A DNA stretch of 64,000 nucleotides, from positions 67,223 to 131,222 of the forward strand of contig JARYMT010000001.1 in the NCBI GenBank assembly GCA_029906985.1, given 5' to 3'. Shown here piece after piece: positions 9,038-64,000 of this stretch. Under the pieces are notes generated by a model that was not told where the DNA came from, did not search any database, and saw nothing but the letters and a program-made list of their open reading frames with translations. Both the position numbers and the translations under genes were made by a program. This DNA is from Microgenomates group bacterium (GTDB taxonomy: Bacteria > Patescibacteriota > Microgenomatia > UBA1406 > GWC2-37-13). Position 1 is the stretch's first letter. Every line of letters begins with the position of its first letter.

Positions 9038-9703
9038 TTATTTGAATTCGACACTGTTGACAATCTGATTAAAAATATTTTCCGGAATCATCCCATTAAT
9101 CACCTGAAGGACATGATCTGGATCGTTGGGAACTTGAAAAAAATAATTAGTATTGGCCACGTTTCCCTTTTTATCAAGATAAATAGCCTTAAAACCTTTT
9201 AGCCCTTTGGAATTGGTATAAGGCTCAACTGATTTTGCGCCAGAGAGACCACTAAATCTTCGCCAATAATTGGCAGCAAATCCTTCTAAATCACCCTGAT
9301 ATTTTTTATTAAATTCTGAGATAGTTTCTACGGTAAAAGCAATATTTTGTTGGGGAGGAACAATGCCTGTAATCCAAGCAATTTTGTCCGATTGGTCATT
9401 GATAAAGGCAGTTATTTGTAGTTCGGCCGGATAGATAAATAAATATTTGTATATTTTTCCGCCCGACTGGAGCCATTTTCCTGATTTACCTAATTGAGTT
9501 AAATCAACTGTTGGCACCGGCGTTAATTGATTTGGCCCTAAATAGCTTACCCCGGCAGGAAAGACGACATTTCCTTTATTTTTTTTGCTTACCCAAAAAT
9601 ATACCCCGCCAACCAAAAGCAAAAAAACTAGTAAAACAACGACGCTGGTTAGAGCAAGACTATCTTTTTCTAATAAGTTAGAGTTAGATTTTGATTTTTC
9701 CAT
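9038..9703 (-). CDS. hypothetical membrane-anchored extracytoplasmic protein
   Basis: 221-aa ORF with a single N-terminal TM helix (LALTSVVVLLVFLLLVGGVYFWV). No motif recognised. TTGACA-17-TAAATT promoter-like sequence upstream at about 9712-9740 (minus strand). Confidence 0.5.
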   Translation of the reverse strand: MEKSKSNSNLLEKDSLALTSVVVLLVFLLLVGGVYFWVSKKNKGNVVFPAGVSYLGPNQLTPVPTVDLTQLGKSGKWLQSGGKIYKYLFIYPAELQITAFINDQSDKIAWITGIVPPQQNIAFTVETISEFNKKYQGDLEGFAANYWRRFSGLSGAKSVEPYTNSKGLKGFKAIYLDKKGNVANTNYFFQVPNDPDHVLQVINGMIPENIFNQIVNSVEFK

Positions 9704-32182: not shown

Positions 32183-32962
32183 TTACACCTTAAACAAACT
32201 TCCCACCAAATATCCAACCAAAGCCGAAAGCATACCGATCGCCATCATCTCAAATCCCATTTTAAGAAAATTCCGGCCAAGGGTGATTTTTGCTTTGTAA
32301 TAACCGATACCAAAAAGAATTAATGAGGTGATTATTACCGATAGCCAGACGCTGACAGTGACCGGCAGGAAAAAAAACGGCAATAGTGGGGTTAACGAAC
32401 CAATTAAAGCGGCCACACCAACAATTAAAGCGTCTGGAAAAGCTTGTCTTCTATCAACTTTTTCCAGTTTTAGTTCCTGTTCCATCATTACCTGCAACCA
32501 GTTTTTTTTGTCGCTGGTAATTTTTTCAATAATTTCCTCCAGCTGTTTTCCTTGAAAACCATAATTTTCATAAAGAGCTTTGATTTCTTCTTTTTCACCA
32601 TTTGGATTATTTTCAATCTCCCATTTTTCTCTCTCCAGTTCCGATTGATAATAGTCTGCCTCGGCCAGCTTGCTGTTGTAGGCAACCGCCGCCATGGAAA
32701 AACTTTCGGCAAAAGTCATTGCCAGACCAGAAATAATCACCAGACGCGAATCGGAAGTTGCGGCCGCCACCCCTAAAATTAAACCTAAGACATTAACCAG
32801 TCCATCCTGACCACCAAGAATAATTTGAGGTAAAATAAAACTGTTGTTTTTCTTTTCACCATTATGAATTGCCCGATGGACCAAGCGGGGGGCATGAAAT
32901 AATTTCATTTTTTTTAAATCTTTTTTCAAAAACGCCTCGCGGGCCTTATCTATTCTGGGCAT
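32183..32962 (-). CDS. VIT1/CCC1-family iron/manganese transporter
   Basis: GGQDGLVNVLGLILGVAAA motif, central acidic helical region (EADYYQSELEREKWEIENNP), C-terminal TM helices. Confidence 0.75.
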   Translation of the reverse strand: MPRIDKAREAFLKKDLKKMKLFHAPRLVHRAIHNGEKKNNSFILPQIILGGQDGLVNVLGLILGVAAATSDSRLVIISGLAMTFAESFSMAAVAYNSKLAEADYYQSELEREKWEIENNPNGEKEEIKALYENYGFQGKQLEEIIEKITSDKKNWLQVMMEQELKLEKVDRRQAFPDALIVGVAALIGSLTPLLPFFFLPVTVSVWLSVIITSLILFGIGYYKAKITLGRNFLKMGFEMMAIGMLSALVGYLVGSLFKV

Positions 32963-33020
32963 AAAAAATTAAAAAATATTAAAATTTAATCTTGTTTTTT
33001 CCTACAATCAAACTTAACTT

Positions 33021-34403
33021 TTATATCTTATTATTGATAATTAATTCTCTAATTATATCAAAAAATCTCTCCATCACCAATAAATTATGATATGTTGCTA
33101 AATTATAAGCCAAAATTTCTTTTTGTTTAAATAAATGGTGAAGATAAGATTTACTAAAATTTTGACAAACATAACAATAACAATTTTCATCAACCGGTGA
33201 CAAATCATGTTTATATCGATTTTTAAAAATATCAACTTGTCTGGAAATTGTTTTTTTAAAATTGGAAACTTGGTGAGAATTTAGAAAATTGAAACTTGAG
33301 ATTTGGTATAACCTCCCCATTCTTGCTAATCTCGTCGGTTCAACGCAATCAAAAGTATCAATCCCATATCCTACTAGATCTAAAATATCATCAAATTGGC
33401 CAACACCAAGAAGATGAACCGGCCGATCAGCGGGCAGATAATCGGCAACCCAGTCAACCTGATCTCGCATCTCTTTTTTGCTTTCGCCGACAGAGACGCC
33501 GCCAATCGCTACTCCATCGGTGTTTTGGGAAACAACAAATTTGGCCGACTCTTTCCGTAAATCCTCAAAAGTGGCCCCCTGAATAATGCCATAAAGAAAC
33601 TGTTGTTTTTGTTTGAGAGGCAAAGCAGCCCCAACTGGAGGTTTGGCCGACGAAGCCTTAGTGACTTTGGTAAACGAATCCAAAACAGGAGTCGCTAACC
33701 GATTATTAAAATATTTGATGCATCTTTTTAACCATTCATGAGTTCTCTCCATCGCTTTTCTAGCATATTTGTATTGCGCAGGATAATATGTGCATTCATC
33801 AAACGCCATCATTATGTCTGCTCCAATTTTTATCTGATGCTCCATTGATTTTTCCGGAGTAAACTCGATCAGCTGGCCATCATAGGTCGACCGAAACCTT
33901 ACCCCATCGTCGGAAATTTTTATCACCAGCGGCTCTTCCTCGCCTCTAATATCGGCTTTTCTTATTTTGTTTTGACCATGAAGAAATACCTGCTTTTGTG
34001 ACAGTCGCCCGGGTGAGGCGGTCGAAAAAACACGGTGTCGAGCATCATTATTTTCAGAAAGGTCCGCCTTCGCAGTAAATCGCTGCTTTGTCGAGGCGAG
34101 GGAAAACACCTGAAACCCTCCTGAATCACTCATTAAAGGAAGATTTAATTTTGCCCATTGATGGATCCCTCCGGCTTTCTGGATTAAATCAGCCCCCGGA
34201 TGAGAGACTAAATGATAAGTATTGACAAAAGCCGCTTGGGTTTTGATTTGATTAAGTAAAAATGGAAAAGTTGTTTTAATTGTCCCTTTTGTCCCAACGG
34301 CTACAAATGCCGGCGTTTTGATTATCCCATGGCTGGTTTTAATTTCCCCAACTCGGGCGTGAGATTTTTTAGATCGATATAGTAATTTAAAAAATTTACC
34401 CAT
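33021..34403 (-). CDS. tgt: tRNA-guanine transglycosylase (queuine tRNA-ribosyltransferase)
   Basis: ARVGEIKTSHGIIKTPAFVAVGT, DSGGFQVFSL, MAFDEC, zinc site CYCYVC...H. Carries extra segments, including about 50 aa after FSL that contain the repeat at 34000-34043. Confidence 0.9.
   Translation of the reverse strand: MGKFFKLLYRSKKSHARVGEIKTSHGIIKTPAFVAVGTKGTIKTTFPFLLNQIKTQAAFVNTYHLVSHPGADLIQKAGGIHQWAKLNLPLMSDSGGFQVFSLASTKQRFTAKADLSENNDARHRVFSTASPGRLSQKQVFLHGQNKIRKADIRGEEEPLVIKISDDGVRFRSTYDGQLIEFTPEKSMEHQIKIGADIMMAFDECTYYPAQYKYARKAMERTHEWLKRCIKYFNNRLATPVLDSFTKVTKASSAKPPVGAALPLKQKQQFLYGIIQGATFEDLRKESAKFVVSQNTDGVAIGGVSVGESKKEMRDQVDWVADYLPADRPVHLLGVGQFDDILDLVGYGIDTFDCVEPTRLARMGRLYQISSFNFLNSHQVSNFKKTISRQVDIFKNRYKHDLSPVDENCYCYVCQNFSKSYLHHLFKQKEILAYNLATYHNLLVMERFFDIIRELIINNKI
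34000..34043. repeat. GC-rich repeat inside the tgt coding sequence (copy 1)
   Basis: GACAGTCGCCCGGGTGAGGCGGTCGAAAAAACACGGTGTCGAGC matches 52335-52402 inside tatD, apart from a 23-nt hairpin present only there, a 1-nt A-run length difference and a few substitutions. Confidence 0.7.
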
Positions 34404-35086: not shown

Positions 35087-36181
35087 CTATTTTATCAGCA
35101 TCGCGTCTCCAAAAGAATAAAAACGGCAGTGATTATCAATGGCAATCTGGTACAATTCCTCAAGCGTCTTTTTGGCTTTTTTGAACTTTAAAAAAGCTTC
35201 AACTAATAATCTTAACGAAGAACCGGGTAAATGAAAATTGGTAATCAGACAATCAACCGCTTTAAAATTATAAGGGGGAAAAATAAAAATCCGGGTGTTG
35301 CCAAAGATTTTTTTGTTTTTAGAAATTATTTCACTAAATTGGTTATAGCATTTTTGGCAAGAACCGGAAATAAATTCAGGCGGATATAAAAATATCGATT
35401 CCAAAGTTCTGACAACGGTTGTTCCCACTGCCACTAGTTTTTTGCCATTTTTTTTCCATCTCTGGCAGTTTTTCAATGTTTCTTTTTCCATCTCAAAATA
35501 TTCTTGATGAAGTTTTTTTTCTTTTATATTTTTTTCCGATACCGGCGCAAAAGTTCCCAGTCCAACATGAAGGGTAATAAAAAATTTTTTAATTCCTTTT
35601 TTTTCTAATTTTTTAAAAACCCGGTCGGTAAAGTGCAGCGAGGCGGTCGGCGCCGCCATCGAGCCAATCAACCGGGCGCCGACTGGCGTCCCGGAGAAAA
35701 TGGTCTGATATTTTTTTCTCAACTCCTGTTCTGTGAGCGGTGTGTTTTTAATATACGGCGGAATCGGCATAGATCCGGCATTTTCTAAAAGTCTAAATAA
35801 CTTTTCCCGGGTAAAGTTTAATTTAAATGTAAAAATATTATTTTCCTGTCTTACTGCGGTTGCCAAGTTTTTATTATCAAAAAATAGCTTGTCTCCGATG
35901 TTTATTTTTCGATCAACCATTCCCCTAATTTTTTTGTCAGACCTATTAGTCTCATTCACTAAAAACAACACCTCCACCACTCCACCGTTTTTCTTTTTTA
36001 ACCTGATTCTCGCCGGCAATACCTTAGTATTGTTGAAAACCAAAAAAGATTTTTTAGGCAGATATTTATCCAAGTTATAAAACCGGTCAAAGAAAATCTC
36101 ATCGGTTGAGGTATCATAAACCAAAAGTTTTGCCCAGTCGCGCGGACTGGCTGGTTGTTGGGCAATAATAATATTTTTCAC
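35087..36181 (-). CDS. queA: S-adenosylmethionine:tRNA ribosyltransferase-isomerase
   Basis: PASPRD...KLLV, SMAAPTASLHFT, HVGLGTF, VAVGTTVVRTLES motifs. Confidence 0.9.
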   Translation of the reverse strand: MKNIIIAQQPASPRDWAKLLVYDTSTDEIFFDRFYNLDKYLPKKSFLVFNNTKVLPARIRLKKKNGGVVEVLFLVNETNRSDKKIRGMVDRKINIGDKLFFDNKNLATAVRQENNIFTFKLNFTREKLFRLLENAGSMPIPPYIKNTPLTEQELRKKYQTIFSGTPVGARLIGSMAAPTASLHFTDRVFKKLEKKGIKKFFITLHVGLGTFAPVSEKNIKEKKLHQEYFEMEKETLKNCQRWKKNGKKLVAVGTTVVRTLESIFLYPPEFISGSCQKCYNQFSEIISKNKKIFGNTRIFIFPPYNFKAVDCLITNFHLPGSSLRLLVEAFLKFKKAKKTLEELYQIAIDNHCRFYSFGDAMLIK

Positions 36182-47209: not shown

Positions 47210-48361
47210 ATGGCCGCTTCAGTGATTGTCTTTGATCCAACCGCAAATGATGAATTAAGCCGTGTCCGCGGTGTTGGCCGCTACCTACAAATTCTAAAAG
47301 AAAATTTTTCCGGAGAATGGATTTTTACCAACAATTTAACCACAAAGCAATTGAGCTATTCAACAATTTTCATTAACCCATTTTTTAACTTCCTTCAACC
47401 GCCTCTAACTCTCAAACGCCTTGCCAAAAAACAGATCGCCGTTATTCATGATCTTATTCCCTTAAAATATCCCGGGCATTTTCCCGCCGGAATCAAAGGA
47501 AAGATAAATGTCTTTTTAAACAAACTGACTTTAAAAAATTATGACTTAATAATAACCGACTCTGAGGCCTCAAAAAAAGACATTATTCAAATACTTAATC
47601 AACTGCCGGAAAAAGTTAAGGTAGTTTATCCTTGTTTACCAACAGTTTTTAGGGAAAATAAAAATCGGAAAGAGGCTGTGACAGCGAGCCAAAAAAATTT
47701 AAGCAAAATTTTGTTTCCAGACCCACCTCCTAACTTTTGTATTTATGTCGGCGACGCTACCTGGAATAAAAATTTAGTCAACCTGGCAAAGGCAATAAAG
47801 ATAATAAATGTTCCGTGTGTTTTCGTCGGGAAAGTTTTTAGCGCGGGTGGTGAGCGACGGGGGGACCCAACGAGCCGAGCGACATTATCCGCACGGAAGC
47901 ATTTACCAAGTGAGGCGAGCGAGGCTGGGGCTGGCGCGAACCAAGACCCGCCGAAAAATCCATGGTTAAACGAACTCAATCAATTCCTTTTTGAAGCCAA
48001 AAACGACCAACGCTTTATTTTTCCCGGTTTTGTACCTGATGAAAGGCTAATCCAACTCTATAAGCAGGCGAGATTAAACATTCTTGTTTCCCGTGACGAA
48101 GGCTTCGGTTTCTCCTACTTTGAAGCCGCCTCCCAAGGCTGCTCATCAGTTCTTTCCGACATTCCGGTTTTTCGCGAAACCGCCGATAGTGCTGCTTTAT
48201 TTGCCAACCCAAATAATCCAAATGAGATTGCCGATCAAATCGGCGAACTTTATTTTAATGAAGAATTAAGAAATAATTTTAGTCAAAAAGCAAAAAAGCG
48301 CTTCCGTCAATTTTCTCCAGAGAAATTCAAAAGAGAGTTTCTTAATTCGCTTAATTTTTAG
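47210..48361 (+). CDS. family 4 (GT-B, group 1) glycosyltransferase with GC-rich internal insertion
   Basis: C-terminal GT1 core ..VSRDEGFGFSYFEAASQGCSSVLSDIPVFRE.. (EX7E-type). The segment 47841-47955 encodes SAGGERRGDPTSRATLSARKHLPSEASEAGAGANQDPP and is strikingly GC-rich. Confidence 0.8.
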   Translation: MAASVIVFDPTANDELSRVRGVGRYLQILKENFSGEWIFTNNLTTKQLSYSTIFINPFFNFLQPPLTLKRLAKKQIAVIHDLIPLKYPGHFPAGIKGKINVFLNKLTLKNYDLIITDSEASKKDIIQILNQLPEKVKVVYPCLPTVFRENKNRKEAVTASQKNLSKILFPDPPPNFCIYVGDATWNKNLVNLAKAIKIINVPCVFVGKVFSAGGERRGDPTSRATLSARKHLPSEASEAGAGANQDPPKNPWLNELNQFLFEAKNDQRFIFPGFVPDERLIQLYKQARLNILVSRDEGFGFSYFEAASQGCSSVLSDIPVFRETADSAALFANPNNPNEIADQIGELYFNEELRNNFSQKAKKRFRQFSPEKFKREFLNSLNF

Positions 48362-51731: not shown

Positions 51732-52628
51732 TTATTTTATTAAAAAAAGTTTTTGGGCGTTTTTTGTTGTTTTTTTGATTAATTGACTTGTTTGAATGTT
51801 TAATGTTTTGGCGATAAATTCGGCGATGAGTTTGATATTTTTTGGGACATTTGGTCCGTCACCAACGCTGATTTTATTAATTTTTGGCATCATAAAGGGG
51901 GCATCGGTTTCTAAAACCAAAAGATCCAACGGCACTTTTTTGATAAACTCCTGCTTTTTCTTTTTATATGTAATATCACCATCAATCCCGATATATATTT
52001 TGTGTTTGATTGCATAATCTAATAGTTTATCATCAGCCTCGCAGCAGTGAAAAACCGTCCGTCCCGCTAGTTTTTTATCCCAGACTTGATTTAAAATATG
52101 GAGCAAATCATCAGTTGCCTGTCGGTTATGAAGAATCAGACTTTTATTATATTCTTTTGCCAAATTAATCTGCTCAATTAATATATTTTTTTGCAGATCT
52201 ATAAATTCTTCATCTACTTTGTAATTTAAATATTTGGTTTTCTCATAATAATATCTATCAATCCCCACCTCACCAATCGCCACGACTTTTTTGTTTGCCA
52301 ATAAGCTCTCAATTGGCGAAGATATTTGTTTTGAGACAATCGCCTGGGGGACCCCCCATGCGAAGCGTGGGGGTGAGGCGGTCGAAAAACACGGTGTCAA
52401 GCCAATAGAATAAGACTTTACAAATTTATATACATGATGCGGATGTATTCCTACCGCCGCATAAACCTCTTTATATTTTCCCGCAACCTCCACCGCCCTC
52501 TTTGAACTTTCAATATCCGTCCCTGGGACAATAATTCTGTCGACGCCGGCTTTTTTGGCATCAGCAATAATTTGGTCGAGATTATTTTTAAATATCTTGA
52601 AGTTTAAATGACAATGCGTATCAACCAT
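51732..52628 (-). CDS. tatD: TatD-family metal-dependent hydrolase/DNase
   Basis: MVDTHCHLNF, AAVGIHPH, VVAIGEVGIDRYY, LILHNR, ETDAPF motifs. About 30 extra residues (..LTPCFSTASPPRFAWGVPQAIV..) are encoded by the repeat at 52335-52402. Confidence 0.85.
   Translation of the reverse strand: MVDTHCHLNFKIFKNNLDQIIADAKKAGVDRIIVPGTDIESSKRAVEVAGKYKEVYAAVGIHPHHVYKFVKSYSIGLTPCFSTASPPRFAWGVPQAIVSKQISSPIESLLANKKVVAIGEVGIDRYYYEKTKYLNYKVDEEFIDLQKNILIEQINLAKEYNKSLILHNRQATDDLLHILNQVWDKKLAGRTVFHCCEADDKLLDYAIKHKIYIGIDGDITYKKKKQEFIKKVPLDLLVLETDAPFMMPKINKISVGDGPNVPKNIKLIAEFIAKTLNIQTSQLIKKTTKNAQKLFLIK
52335..52402. repeat. GC-rich repeat inside the tatD coding sequence (copy 2, with extra hairpin)
   Basis: GACAATCGCCTGGGGG[ACCCCCCATGCGAAGCGTGGGG]GTGAGGCGGTCGAAAAACACGGTGTCAAGC. 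The bracketed part forms an 8-bp stem (CCCCATGC-GAA-GCGTGGGG) that is absent from the tgt copy. Confidence 0.7.
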
Positions 52629-56261: not shown

Positions 56262-57347
56262 TTATAAAATAATCTGGTATCGGCCGTTTTGATTTTTTTG
56301 GACAATTCCTTTTATTTCAAGAGCCGAAAGCAAATTTAAAATTATGTTGACAGAAATTTTAGTTTCTTCGACTAGCTCGTCGACCAATTTAGGTTGGAAT
56401 TTTAATCGCTTGTAAATTTCTTTTTCTTTTGGAGTCAGCTTGGCTTCGGTTTCTTTGGTTTTTTGGGGCAAAAATCGCAAATTAAATTCTTCTAAAATAT
56501 CTTCAACCGAAGTCACCAGTTTGGCGCCCTGCTTTAACAGGATGTTGGGAGCCTCTGACATTTGAGAAGTAATTGGTCCCGGTGTGGCGAAAACTACTCT
56601 TCCTTGTTCGGCCGCATAACGGGCGGTAATTAAAGATCCAGAATCCCTCGCTCCTTCGACCACTAAAACTCCTTTTACTAAACCGGAAATAATTCTGTTT
56701 CTGGCGATAAAAAGGCCTTTTAAAACCGTTTGGCCCGGCGGAAATTCCGAGATAATCAAACTTCTTTTTTTTATAATTTCTTGATAAAGTTGAAAGTTTA
56801 AGGCCGGATAAACAATATCTACCCCGCAGCCCAAAACCGCGATTGTTTTTGCTTTAGCTTCTAAAGCTGCCCGATGGGCTAAAGCATCAATCCCCAACGC
56901 CATTCCTGAAACAATATTAAAACCAGCAGCTCCTAAGTCGGCCGTCAGCTTTCTCACTATTTGTTCACCATAACTCGTTGGTCTTCTGGTGCCAACTATT
57001 GCCAAAAAAAACTCTTTTTCAAAATCAAAAAACTCCACATTGCCCTTGATATATAAACAAATTGGCGGGTCGCTGATATTTTTTAAAGTTGGCGGATATC
57101 TTTTGTTGTCGCAATCAATGACAGTAATATTTTTTTCTCGAAGCTCTTTTAATTTTTTTTGACTATCGAAATGTCGACGAAAATGGATAAATTTTTCTGT
57201 CAGTGAATTGCCCAAAATTTCTTTTAGGTCTTTTTGTTTTGCCCAGTAACCTTTATCAACTTGCCCAAATTTATCTTTAATCGCCTTAAATTTCATTGGT
57301 CCGATGCCTAAAAAATGCGAAAAAGCCAGATAAGATAAATTAGTCAT
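56262..57347 (-). CDS. dprA: DNA-processing protein DprA (Smf)
   Basis: LAIVGTRRPTSYG, SGMALGIDALAHRAAL, VLGCGVDIVYP, RNRIISGL, C-terminal winged-helix-like tail. Confidence 0.9.
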   Translation of the reverse strand: MTNLSYLAFSHFLGIGPMKFKAIKDKFGQVDKGYWAKQKDLKEILGNSLTEKFIHFRRHFDSQKKLKELREKNITVIDCDNKRYPPTLKNISDPPICLYIKGNVEFFDFEKEFFLAIVGTRRPTSYGEQIVRKLTADLGAAGFNIVSGMALGIDALAHRAALEAKAKTIAVLGCGVDIVYPALNFQLYQEIIKKRSLIISEFPPGQTVLKGLFIARNRIISGLVKGVLVVEGARDSGSLITARYAAEQGRVVFATPGPITSQMSEAPNILLKQGAKLVTSVEDILEEFNLRFLPQKTKETEAKLTPKEKEIYKRLKFQPKLVDELVEETKISVNIILNLLSALEIKGIVQKNQNGRYQIIL

Positions 57348-57495
57348 TTTTTATTGTCAAAAATAATAAATTTCGCTAAAAAATTCGTTGCCAGTTTTTC
57401 TGGAACCTCTCACTATTTTAAAACAGATGATAAAAAAAGTCTGTCGACTATAATCGACAAAATTATTGTTTTTTTGATTGTAGTAAAATAATTTT

Positions 57496-62239: not shown

Positions 62240-62370
62240 ATCGTTTTTTAATCATAGCAAAAAAATAAAACCGATGCAAAACTTTTTTGAAAAACTTTCT
62301 TAAAGGAAGAATAAATAATGTAAAATTATTTATCCTCAGCGGTTTTTGTTTTTTTAAATTATAAAAAATT

Positions 62371-64000
62371 ATGAAAATAAAAAAACTGCCTTTTTTTGAA
62401 AAAGGCCATCAGGGTAATATGAATTTTGATAAAAATTCTTCCGATAGTGGATGGTTTTTTTATTTTTATATTTTTTTTATCGCGGCTTTCTTTTTTGTTT
62501 TGCTTATCCGTCTTTTCCAGTTGACGGTGGTTAAAGGAACTTATTATTTAAGTTTGTCCGAACAAAACCGATTAAGGGAGGTAATTATCGAAGCTCCCCG
62601 GGGAAAAATTATCGACAGAAAAGGGTTTGTTTTGGCAGAAAGCAGTGATCCTGATCTTGATATTTTCAGTCAAAGAATTATCTCTAAAAGACATTATTTT
62701 AATCCCGAATCAATTGCCCATCTGGTTGGATACCGACAGTTGGCTGATGCCAATGATTTAAAAAATGATGATTGTCTAAATAAATTAAAGCTGGGAGACA
62801 AGGTGGGGAAAAAAGGAGTAGAAAAACTTTTTGACTGCGATTTACGCGGTCGCAACGGTAAAAAACTCATTGAGGTTGATGCTTTTAATCGGCCGGTAAA
62901 AAACGGCTTGATTAATATCATTGCTCCAGAACAGGGAAAAACTATTCAATTGGCCTTAGATTCGGAACTTCAGCAAAAAGCTTTCGCCCTTTTATCGGGA
63001 AAAAAGGGGGCCATCATTGCCTTAAAGCCTAAAACCGGTGAAATTTTAACCATGGTTTCTTCTCCAAGCTTTAATCCCCAAGATTTCGAAGATCAAAACC
63101 ACGAGGCGCTCGAAAACTATCTAAAAGATGAAAATCATCCTTTTTTTAATCGCGCCAGCGAAGGCGCTTATCCGCCGGGGTCTGTTTTTAAGCTGGTGGT
63201 CGCCACCGCCGCCCTGGAGGAAAAATTAATCGATGAAAAAACCGTTTTTGAAGACACGGGAAAAATTACCGCCGGCCCCTTGACTTTTGGCAACTGGTAC
63301 TTTTTACAATACGGAAAAACCGAGGGGATGGTTGATGTAGTTAAGGCTTTGCGGCGGTCTAATGATATATTTTTTTATCATACCGGGGCGCTTCTTGGTC
63401 CGGAAAAAATTAAATTCTGGGCAGAAAAAATGGGTTTGGGGAAAAAAACCAATTTTGGTCTTGAGGAAAATGCCGGGGTTATTCCTTCTTCTTTTTGGAA
63501 AGAAGAGGTTTTAAAAGAACGCTGGTATTTGGGTGATACCTATAATTTGTCAATCGGTCAGGGATATCTTTTGGTTTCCCCTCTTCAGCTGGCCCAACTA
63601 ACCTCAATTTTTGCCAACGACGGCTATCTTTGCCAGCCCCAACTTTTAAAAAACCGCCGGCCAAATTGTCAAAAAATTGGTCTTTCCGAAAAAACCCTAT
63701 CCCTTATTAAAGAAGGTATGAAACAAGCTTGTTTTCCGGGTGGAACCGGTTGGCCGCTTTTTGACTTTAAAGTTAATGTTGGTCAAGAGGCAAAACCTCG
63801 CGCCTCAAATCAATCACCTAAAGAGTCAACTAACGAGGCCGATCAGACAAAAAAACCGCCTTCGGCTTTCTTGCCGATTCAGACCGCCTGCAAGACCGGC
63901 ACGGCGGAATTTTATTCTTATTCAAAAACTCCTCACGCCTGGTTTACTGTCTATGCGCCGGCTGATAATCCGGAAATTGTTTTAACGATTTTGGTTGAAC
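62371..64000 (+). CDS. mrdA: penicillin-binding protein 2 / peptidoglycan D,D-transpeptidase (3' end outside window)
   Basis: Not in the ORF track because no stop lies in the window. I read the frame as open from ATG 62371 to base 64000. TM anchor, LFQLTVVKGTYY..APRGKIIDRKGFVLAE, SxxK (GSVFK), SIGQG, KTGTAE motifs. Confidence 0.85.
   Translation, partial: MKIKKLPFFEKGHQGNMNFDKNSSDSGWFFYFYIFFIAAFFFVLLIRLFQLTVVKGTYYLSLSEQNRLREVIIEAPRGKIIDRKGFVLAESSDPDLDIFSQRIISKRHYFNPESIAHLVGYRQLADANDLKNDDCLNKLKLGDKVGKKGVEKLFDCDLRGRNGKKLIEVDAFNRPVKNGLINIIAPEQGKTIQLALDSELQQKAFALLSGKKGAIIALKPKTGEILTMVSSPSFNPQDFEDQNHEALENYLKDENHPFFNRASEGAYPPGSVFKLVVATAALEEKLIDEKTVFEDTGKITAGPLTFGNWYFLQYGKTEGMVDVVKALRRSNDIFFYHTGALLGPEKIKFWAEKMGLGKKTNFGLEENAGVIPSSFWKEEVLKERWYLGDTYNLSIGQGYLLVSPLQLAQLTSIFANDGYLCQPQLLKNRRPNCQKIGLSEKTLSLIKEGMKQACFPGGTGWPLFDFKVNVGQEAKPRASNQSPKESTNEADQTKKPPSAFLPIQTACKTGTAEFYSYSKTPHAWFTVYAPADNPEIVLTILVE

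Follow-up and report, generated by a model that had tools for sequence, protein, structure and literature searches.

The question raised by this locus is why two unrelated housekeeping genes should carry the same GC-rich sequence inside their coding regions. The locus is a stretch of 64,000 nucleotides (hereafter, the window) from a Microgenomates group bacterium (GenBank assembly GCA_029906985.1, contig JARYMT010000001.1, positions 67,223 to 131,222 of the forward strand); it is AT-rich, with a GC content of ~35%. The two genes are tgt, coding for queuine tRNA-ribosyltransferase (33021–34403, − strand; PDB phmmer E = 1.5e-72; Pfam PF01702), and tatD, coding for a TatD-family hydrolase of 298 aa (51732–52628, − strand; PDB phmmer E = 4e-34; Pfam PF01026). 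A first-pass annotation had proposed that the shared sequence is a small palindromic repeat inserted in-frame and tolerated as a surface loop, much as the Rickettsia palindromic elements (RPEs) are; our analysis supports this proposal, the palindrome detail alone being wrong. In the explanation that we favor, and to which we assign a probability of roughly 85%, the sequence belongs to a dispersed family of GC-rich palindromic repeats that sit in-frame in genes, whose copies decay and in which the hairpin of one strand is maintained. The existence of the element and its in-frame tolerance are well supported; a mechanism acting on single-stranded DNA is what we would propose for its maintenance.

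The shared sequence is real: it occupies positions 34000–34043 in tgt and 52335–52402 in tatD, on the + strand in both cases, within the open reading frames (ORFs) 33021–34403 (−) and 51732–52628 (−). A 17-mer, GTGAGGCGGTCGAAAAA, is exact at both sites; matches to it with ≤3 mismatches were expected ~0.17 times, and the observed count was reached in none of 100 shuffles. The two copies are each other's sole significant blastn match in the window (29 nt, 96.6% identity, E ~3e-6), and both are translated as ..FSTASP.., as had been claimed. The claim that they are shared in-frame holds for the middle of the two copies, which is read in the same frame; the outer parts are in different frames because of a one-base difference in a T run and a different apex.

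The element also extends further than had been reported. While the shared stretch is present, the left arm (GAAGAnACCTGnTTTTGAGACAATCGCC) had been missed; the full copies run from 33978 to 34043 in tgt (+ strand; nhmmer E = 2e-12; covariance model 44.1 bits, E = 2.6e-9) and from 52314 to 52402 in tatD (+ strand; nhmmer E = 7e-18; covariance model 62.2 bits, E = 3.5e-14). No confident copy beyond these two was found in the window by hidden Markov model and covariance model. An inverted partner suggested at 34062–34071 has to be given up: it lies outside the element, the stretch 34044–34120 folds like its shuffles (z = −0.14), and the true pairing partner of GAGGCGGTC is GACAGTCGCC at 34000–34009. 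The tgt copy is partly decayed, with the apical hairpin deleted and the left arm mutated; its fold as single-stranded DNA is no better than that of shuffles. The tatD copy is intact, has an unusually long apical hairpin and its DNA fold has z = −2.85. Read on the − strand, the two copies give ARHRVFSTASPGRLSQKQVFLH (Tgt aa 121–142) and GLTPCFSTASPPRFAWGVPQAIVSKQISSP (TatD aa 76–105), respectively.

That the host proteins carry extra residues at these places was confirmed by alignment with their PDB relatives. Tgt residues 105–160 have no counterpart, falling between residues 102 and 103 of Escherichia coli Tgt, and TatD residues 72–104 fall between residues 72 and 77 of 2gzx; the window Tgt has 460 aa versus ~375 in canonical enzymes. 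In the AlphaFold2 model of TatD (mean predicted local distance difference test, pLDDT, 91.9; predicted template modelling score 0.90) the sole low-confidence stretch is aa 71–100, a coil between two helices. The Tgt model (mean pLDDT 79.8) has low-confidence stretches at aa 106–156, 241–267 and 371–389, which are exactly the three sites where Tgt carries inserts (sites 1, 2 and 3 below). The inserts thus appear as low-confidence loops in otherwise confident models, and they are predicted to be surface loops compatible with the fold.

The two copies have many relatives. Scanning genomes with part of the right arm gave five true copies, located in Candidatus Roizmanbacteria GW2011_GWC2_34_23 (two contigs) and GW2011_GWA2_35_19, in a Patescibacteria metagenome-assembled genome and in a contig of 35% GC that bears a Gammaproteobacteria label; six more matches, in GC-rich genomes, were due to chance. 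Aligning the true copies uncovered the left arm and produced the 78-nt consensus AAGCGAAGATACCTGTTTTTGAGACAATCGCCTGGGGCCCCTTTGGGGTGAGGCGGTCGAAAAAACACGGTGTCGAGC; element length is ~78–95 nt. The element was found in at least 120 metagenome stretches, and an nhmmer search of 0.92 Mb of Patescibacteria and metagenome contigs (E < 1e-3) yielded at least 127 copies, in unrelated genes, in several frames and in both orientations, as well as between genes; these counts cover the loci among the matches listed, from incomplete genomes. With a density of about one copy per 30–40 kb, the element is dispersed through the AT-rich (~35% GC), compact genomes of Roizmanbacteria-like Patescibacteria; the top homologues of the window's TatD and Tgt are named Candidatus Roizmanbacteria as well. 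A profile of the insert peptide had only three matches among 1.84 billion representative proteins and so carries little information on host range. A single match in viral contigs was a chance one, in 61% GC DNA. One locus labelled 'uncultured Gammaproteobacteria' (L006, contig CAYWJV010000021.1) has 35% GC and Roizmanbacteria-like queA and tgt genes with the element; this contig was probably mis-binned.

The copies were divided into four groups: (i) those deep in long ORFs with the gene antisense to the + strand of the element (48 copies); (ii) those deep in long ORFs with the gene in sense (14 copies); (iii) those at ORF edges (17 copies); (iv) those in short intergenic spacers (48 copies). 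Between 62 and 79 of the 127 copies (~50–60%) are therefore inside ORFs. Host sites include QueA (after VGTTVVRTLES), Tgt (three loops), TatD (after HPHHV), an M16 peptidase, a P-type ATPase (just after DKTGT..VTDVV), a glycosyltransferase and membrane proteins. The − strand of the element is read in three frames, as ARHRVFSTASPQRGPRRLSQKQVSSL, LDTVFFDRLTPKGPQAIVSKKVSS and LDTVFFRPPHPKGAPGDCLKNRYLRF, and has no stop codon in any of them; the + strand has two TGAs that close two frames, with one open, and it is read as KAKIPFLRQSPGAPLGVRRSKKTVSS or GENTFFETIARGPLGGVAVEKNGIE (two peptide series). The 3:1 ratio of open frames between the − and + strands is sufficient by itself to account for the 48:14 ratio of orientations in genes.

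All intragenic copies found (at least 62) leave the frame open and free of stops, in either orientation and in differing frames, and internal indels are always compensated. There were no frame-breaking copies, and none of the 48 spacer copies has long open frames on its two sides that are out of register with each other. Since every intragenic copy keeps the frame of its host open, such copies are most simply read through; judging from frame conservation, they would add ~22–30 residues in a loop of the protein.

Presence, decay and absence were all seen at the same loops among relatives, namely at the three sites of Tgt and in QueA, TatD, an M16 peptidase and other hosts. In orthologues from the loci, the copy may be intact, recognisably decayed, internally deleted or almost missing: the tatD copy of L052 has only its outer stem remaining, and at Tgt site 1 of L114 there is almost nothing. 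Among the 120 best TatD homologues, many of them named Roizmanbacteria, the spacer between HPHH and VVAIGE is between 30 aa, the canonical length, and 89 aa long; the window's exact TatD protein is itself not on record. Tgt homologues (n = 120) are 365–508 aa long, with lengths of 15–70, 4–70 and 21–72 aa at sites 1, 2 and 3; a recognisable element peptide is present at these sites in 6, 6 and 8 of the 120 proteins, respectively, and many more have decayed-looking ones.

Some observations on these loops stand apart. Several TatD loops (in P0015, P0016, P0023, P0033, P0056, P0076, P0080, P0085, P0090, P0094 and P0098) carry peptides resembling the read-through of other GC-rich repeat families, namely VIPAKAGIQ/H, LRSAQDDM, GIEGLGMT and SLARMT; hairpin elements of several kinds appear to use this loop as a permissive hotspot. 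In the tatD gene of L059 (~690–830) an intact copy adjoins GGTATCTTCGCTTTC, a remnant of an older copy's terminus, and in the queA gene of L052 (~9225–9320) an intact copy adjoins a duplicated AAGCTCGA, again a remnant of an older copy's terminus, which suggests that insertion was repeated at or beside existing copies. In L006 (1714–1790), and also in L064 and L124, a single ORF starts as QueA (N-terminal part) and ends as Tgt (C-terminal part), and at the junction is one element that is itself chimeric, with a right arm of the queA-site type and a left arm of the tgt-site-3 type. This chimera, seen in three assemblies, reflects either a deletion of ~2 kb in which two copies recombined or a collapse of the assembly at the repeat. 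Protein P0122 is a second such chimera, with a TrxB-like N-terminal part, the element peptide and a NadE-like C-terminal part; the repeats seem to be responsible for deletions or for misassemblies in metagenome-assembled genomes.

Along its entire length the element is an inverted repeat, which makes one long imperfect hairpin of 27 base pairs. Its base runs on into the flanks (AAAGC/GCTTT, covarying with GGGT/ACCC, GGTTC/GAACC and GGAGAC/GTCTCC); from there toward the tip follow a GAA|GA internal loop, an outer stem of 6–8 bp, a T5/A5-6 stem, GAC/GTC, a conserved AAT bulge in the 5′ arm, CGCC/GGCG, a T-A or A-T pair, the conserved unpaired GGGG and TG, and a variable apical hairpin. One arm has conserved bulges. 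The core, GAGACAATCGCC..GGCGGTCGAAAAA, is almost invariant across genomes, and subfamilies with different outer arms were found at several unrelated sites. When 109 copies are aligned by the covariance model, pairing holds in 98.2% of 2438 cells, with two-sided changes in 21 of the 27 pairs and 218 compensatory cells; these values were reached by none of 500 shuffles, and slid controls were at most 60% paired. The stems are kept by compensatory changes. A kink-turn was also considered for the 5′ GCGAAGA / GAGC 3′ junction, which looks Kt-7-like, but the Watson-Crick register leaves a 3x2 loop and the idea was dropped.

The two strands do not fold alike. G.U pairs number 156 on the + strand versus 21 on the − strand, the + strand has the more stable fold in 90 of 92 unique copies, and the columns of the outer stem contain 47 G.T versus 11 A.C. 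Intergenic copies have no orientation bias relative to the neighboring genes (10 co/co versus 13 anti/anti), and for intragenic copies the mRNA mostly carries the weaker-folding strand. For these two reasons selection on DNA is more likely than selection on RNA.

Orientation follows the strand asymmetry of the chromosome. The GC skew of the 3 kb on each side, the element itself excluded, is negative on the + strand of the element in 96 of 103 distinct copies (p = 4e-21). With flanks clustered to 54 independent sites, 50 have the same orientation to the skew and 4 the other (p = 4e-11); at intergenic sites alone the figures are 18 and 3 (p = 0.0015). Copies on the same contig point alike in 20 of 21 pairs. 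In the window, cumulative GC skew falls steadily over 1–64000 and genes on both strands share the sign of the skew, so that the asymmetry does not come from coding direction. The G-rich strand is usually equated with the leading strand, and the finding that it holds 61% of coding bases fits this equation.

Copies at orthologous sites are more conserved than the genes around them. The tatD gene of the closest relative (L133, with the protein 71% identical) has an orthologous copy with the same unique long apex; nucleotide identity is 85/90 (94%) in the element and 596/801 (74%) in the rest of tatD (Fisher p = 2.9e-6), and at third codon positions it is 87% versus 57%. For 40 orthologous pairs at eight host sites, mean identity is 88% in the element versus 74% in coding flanks, the element being higher in 38 of them. 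Copies in one genome also agree with each other. At the covarying pair of model positions 33/51, 80 copies have T-A and 44 have A-T; the state of this pair agrees in 25 of 25 within-contig pairs of copies, with none of 12 independent contigs mixed (p ~4e-5), and it differs between genomes at orthologous sites, roughly tracking the TatD tree. Outer-stem subfamilies occur with either state of this pair at the same site, and such a mosaic points to gene conversion or repeated re-colonisation. In L074 and L032 the flanks are 99% identical, and the patch that differs, the right part of the element with ~15 nt beyond it, looks like a recombination tract.

Could the host itself make use of the element? 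A cis element, serving as a binding or nicking site of a genome-maintenance protein or as a regulatory DNA or RNA hairpin, and kept by purifying selection wherever it occurs, also in coding sequence, would agree with orthologous copies that far exceed the surrounding gene in conservation (third codon positions included), with the near-invariant core GAGACAATCGCC..GGCGGTCGAAAAA and with uniform orientation relative to strand asymmetry. It would also agree with the state of pair 33/51, uniform per contig and different between genomes at orthologous sites (25/25, p ~4e-5), but a recently active master copy or gene conversion gives the same uniformity within a genome. Against it, at many orthologous sites the copy is decayed or deleted with the gene retained; the places occupied have no functional context in common, the enzymes whose loops carry copies being unrelated and the spacers representing every gene arrangement; the density of about one copy per 30–40 kb is low, and we identified no trans-acting factor. 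We regard a host-used element as improbable.

A repeat of this kind could be a classical MITE, or miniature inverted-repeat transposable element, a deletion derivative of an insertion sequence (IS) whose terminal inverted repeats are bound by a transposase that moves it as double-stranded DNA. The element is an inverted repeat throughout, its outer-arm subfamilies recur at several unrelated sites, and in-frame fusions are known for MITEs (PMC10969869, PMC5896051). Yet no target duplication in direct repeat was seen, covariation in the stems preserves base pairing and not any one binding sequence, only one strand tolerates G.T wobble, bulges are conserved on one arm, and orientation is tied to strand asymmetry. 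Neither a parent IS nor a transposase was found in the window or in the loci: in the window there is no transposase-bearing IS that shares the ends of the element, and in the loci, which come from incomplete genomes, there are no split arms around a gene. We consider movement as a classical MITE unlikely.

Still less can be said for removal or skipping of the segment (by intron-like excision from RNA or by ribosomal bypass), with the protein left without it. Bypass has an example in the GC-rich 'byp' inserts of a yeast mitochondrion, and in favor of this idea the element is a GC-rich hairpin, under selection, within AT-rich coding sequence. Against this, the frame and the stop-free state are kept in at least 62 intragenic copies, in three frames and both orientations, which would be needless if the segment were removed; the mRNA usually has the weaker-folding strand; and the element is too short (for an intein as well) and has no known intron or ribozyme signature, no Rfam family being matched at gathering or at permissive thresholds. 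This explanation is very improbable.

Finally, the presence of one peptide (..FSTASP..) in two proteins of the window might suggest a protein motif that is ancient and conserved, inherited in common or arisen by convergence, or else an assembly artefact. These ideas are refuted: in other hosts this DNA is translated from either strand and in three frames, 48 copies are outside ORFs, canonical Tgt and TatD have no such segment, close relatives differ in its presence, and copies recur in three named genomes and in contigs from independent assemblies numbering in the dozens.

The explanation that we favor, a dispersed palindromic family, works as follows. Copies are found in intergenic spacers and inside genes, the intragenic ones most simply being read through with ~22–30 loop residues added. 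A copy then has one of three fates: (i) it stays intact; (ii) it loses its center by a hairpin-type deletion, as did the tgt copy of the window and the tatD copy of L052; (iii) it decays into a lineage-specific loop extension. These fates together account for much of the length variation of host proteins (365–508 aa in Tgt). What is maintained would be the hairpin of one strand, as nucleic acid in single-stranded form, most likely as DNA at the replication fork; the reasons for thinking so are the compensatory stems, the G.T wobble tolerated mainly on one strand, evolution slower than that of the host gene and orientation fixed to strand asymmetry. Spread would then be nearer to that of REPINs (doublets of REP, or repetitive extragenic palindromic, sequences) with their REP-associated tyrosine transposase (RAYT), or to 'peel and paste' by the IS200/IS605 family, than to double-strand transposition of MITEs. 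Two options exist for the uniform orientation: insertion could be coupled to replication, as in IS608 (PMC5027513), or the copies whose weaker-folding strand is exposed at the fork could survive preferentially. Internally deleted copies would be the kind of product expected from hairpin slippage.

Several points weigh against this explanation. No clean empty site was found among orthologues, the emptiest ones still being remnant-like. No direct-repeat target duplication is visible; the flanks continue the palindrome, and a duplication of 2–3 A/T could hide in them. Transposition of the element is therefore a putative event. There is no transposase, recombinase or HUH enzyme in the 64-kb window by Pfam, and a crude regular-expression scan of ~0.9 Mb of loci found no Y1-transposase motif. 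The alignment that gave the covariation was fitted to the structure, and the copies in it are related by descent. Gene conversion among copies, rather than selection on each copy, could be the source of the high conservation. The evidence that the insert is translated consists of frame conservation. Lastly, Microgenomates are reported to have an atypical GC skew, and a strand disparity like that of the window was reported for some of them (PMC7143001); for this reason we assign neither strand as the lagging-strand template.

One could speculate further that the palindromic family is an actively maintained, strand-specific replicator, a hairpin of single-stranded DNA residing mainly in coding sequence, subject to purifying selection, homogenised within genomes, repeatedly re-colonising the same loops and served by a RAYT-like or new enzyme. 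We put this forward tentatively and think it rather doubtful as a whole. If true, the replicator would be the main generator of lineage-specific loop insertions in Patescibacteria proteins and a counterpart of REPINs in coding sequence.

Other segments of the window may be related to the element by their position. The whole extra segment at Tgt site 1 (aa 104–160; 33924–34094, − strand) consists of the element copy and flanking extra residues; its upstream part (STKQRFTAKADLSENND) is common only to the orthologues in L032 and L074 and may be older insert material. The extra segment at Tgt site 2 (aa 233–267; 33603–33707, − strand) occupies the loop that has an intact element in L035, P0172 and others, and that at site 3 (aa 368–389; 33237–33302, − strand) occupies the loop with intact elements in L032, L074, L035 and L114, and in 8 of 120 homologues. 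In QueA, an extra segment after ..VGTTVVRTLES (aa 263–293; 35303–35395, − strand) is at the site of intact elements in L031, L052, L092 and L114. Neither nhmmer nor the covariance model detected nucleotide similarity to the element in the window's Tgt sites 2 and 3, in 34044–34120 or in the QueA insert; by their position, the segments at Tgt sites 2 and 3 and in QueA could be decayed copies.

A GC-rich in-frame insert of 139 nt, SAGGERRGDPTSRATLSARKHLPSEASEAGAGANQDPPKNP, is present at 47824–47962 in a glycosyltransferase ORF (47210–48361, + strand). It was rejected as a relative of the element, having no detectable similarity to it; its site (after VFVGKVF) is the exact one occupied by the element in the orthologues of L080, L120, L052 and L124. 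The housekeeping gene queA of the window holds one more small GC-rich indel that is polymorphic: a stretch of 18–21 nt encoding PVGARLI (35666–35686), which L052, L092 and L108 also have and which L031, L114 and L118 lack. Weak covariance-model matches (E = 0.4–0.5) at 57334–57378 (−), 62338–62393 (−) and 32908–32991 (−) are AT-rich hairpins, similar to the outer arms and lacking the core; these may be ordinary terminators or else copies that have eroded completely.

Proteins of the Patescibacteria (candidate phyla radiation) are known for odd insertions. The element offers one concrete source of these: a hairpin repeat that enters housekeeping genes in-frame and decays into loop extensions, contributing to the variation of Tgt (365–508 aa) and of the TatD loop (30–89 aa) among close relatives. 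Annotators gain a DNA signature for such inserts, along with a warning of chimeric ORFs and possible misassemblies in metagenome-assembled genomes. We found no description of such elements in Patescibacteria in the library of papers searched, and a census of prokaryotic MITEs, ~90% of which were intergenic, does not mention the phylum (PMC11602168).

Among known systems, RPEs are repeats of 100–150 bp, intergenic and coding, inserted in-frame, with lineage-specific proliferation (PMC10969869, PMC1779305). The element is like them in being a short dispersed palindromic repeat of a small AT-rich genome, located between and inside unrelated metabolic and housekeeping genes; it also shares with them in-frame insertion, a conserved peptide, fold-compatible positions, proliferation within a lineage and old decayed inserts (PMC10969869, PMC1779305). 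The phylum is different and the length shorter (~78–95 nt versus 100–150 bp), the likeness that we see being one of behavior. One-strand wobble, conservation above the host gene, the uniform covarying pair and orientation fixed to GC skew come in addition to a plain RPE description. We know of no transposase for RPEs, and likewise none was found for this element; to our knowledge, the mechanism by which RPEs spread was never settled.

REPINs are REP doublets that form hairpins and are mobilised by the RAYT Y1 transposase; they have two conserved inverted units, a variable spacer and compensatory changes (PMC3116915). The element matches them as a hairpin of ~70–110 nt with two inverted units, a variable spacer, compensatory changes, a predicted fold of single-stranded DNA and conservation beyond drift (PMC3116915). 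However, REPINs are nearly all extragenic, whereas at least half of the copies of the element are inside ORFs; the GTAG/CGTC tag (or its complement) is absent from the 78-nt consensus; the halves of the element are not themselves palindromes; and no RAYT gene was found in the window by Pfam or in the loci (incomplete genomes) by a regular-expression scan for Y1.

In the IS200/IS605 family, imperfect hairpins are recognised on one strand and chromosomal orientation is tied to the direction of replication (PMC5027513, PMC6006769). The element has a one-strand hairpin and an orientation tied to GC skew at 50 of 54 independent sites. While members of that family have separate left-end and right-end hairpins, a target tetranucleotide and a TnpA of their own, the element is a single long hairpin with no ORF and only A-run/T-run flanks, for which we identified no target motif or enzyme. 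Also, if skew is read in the usual way, its better-folding strand would be on the leading-strand template, the opposite of what is seen in IS608. Taken together, the strand-specific features suggest a strand-specific process on single-stranded DNA, and one-strand wobble, orientation to GC skew and conservation above the host gene make the mechanism of spread testable.

Coxiella QMITE1/2, intragenic ERIC (enterobacterial repetitive intergenic consensus) and Correia elements are, like this one, small non-coding inverted repeats that are sometimes present in ORFs and add residues (PMC5896051, PMC10969869). Those elements have direct-repeat duplications and are mostly intergenic, whereas no duplication was seen here and ~50–60% of copies are intragenic. 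The R″/R′ core sites of integron attC (RYYYAAC ... GTTRRRY) are absent from the consensus, and the copies are in housekeeping genes. In fungal mitochondria, GC-rich palindromic clusters and double-hairpin elements have spread in AT-rich genomes and can sit in-frame, by mechanisms equally unclear; these are organellar and have no known sequence relationship to the element.

In behavior, then, the element is RPE-like and in anatomy REPIN-like, while it departs from REP sequences in its intragenic location and missing tag, and from MITEs in having no duplication of their type. We would file it as an in-frame palindromic selfish repeat in a new phylum, the Patescibacteria; selfish DNA inside protein genes, so far largely a Rickettsia case, is thereby extended to a distant phylum with small AT-rich genomes.

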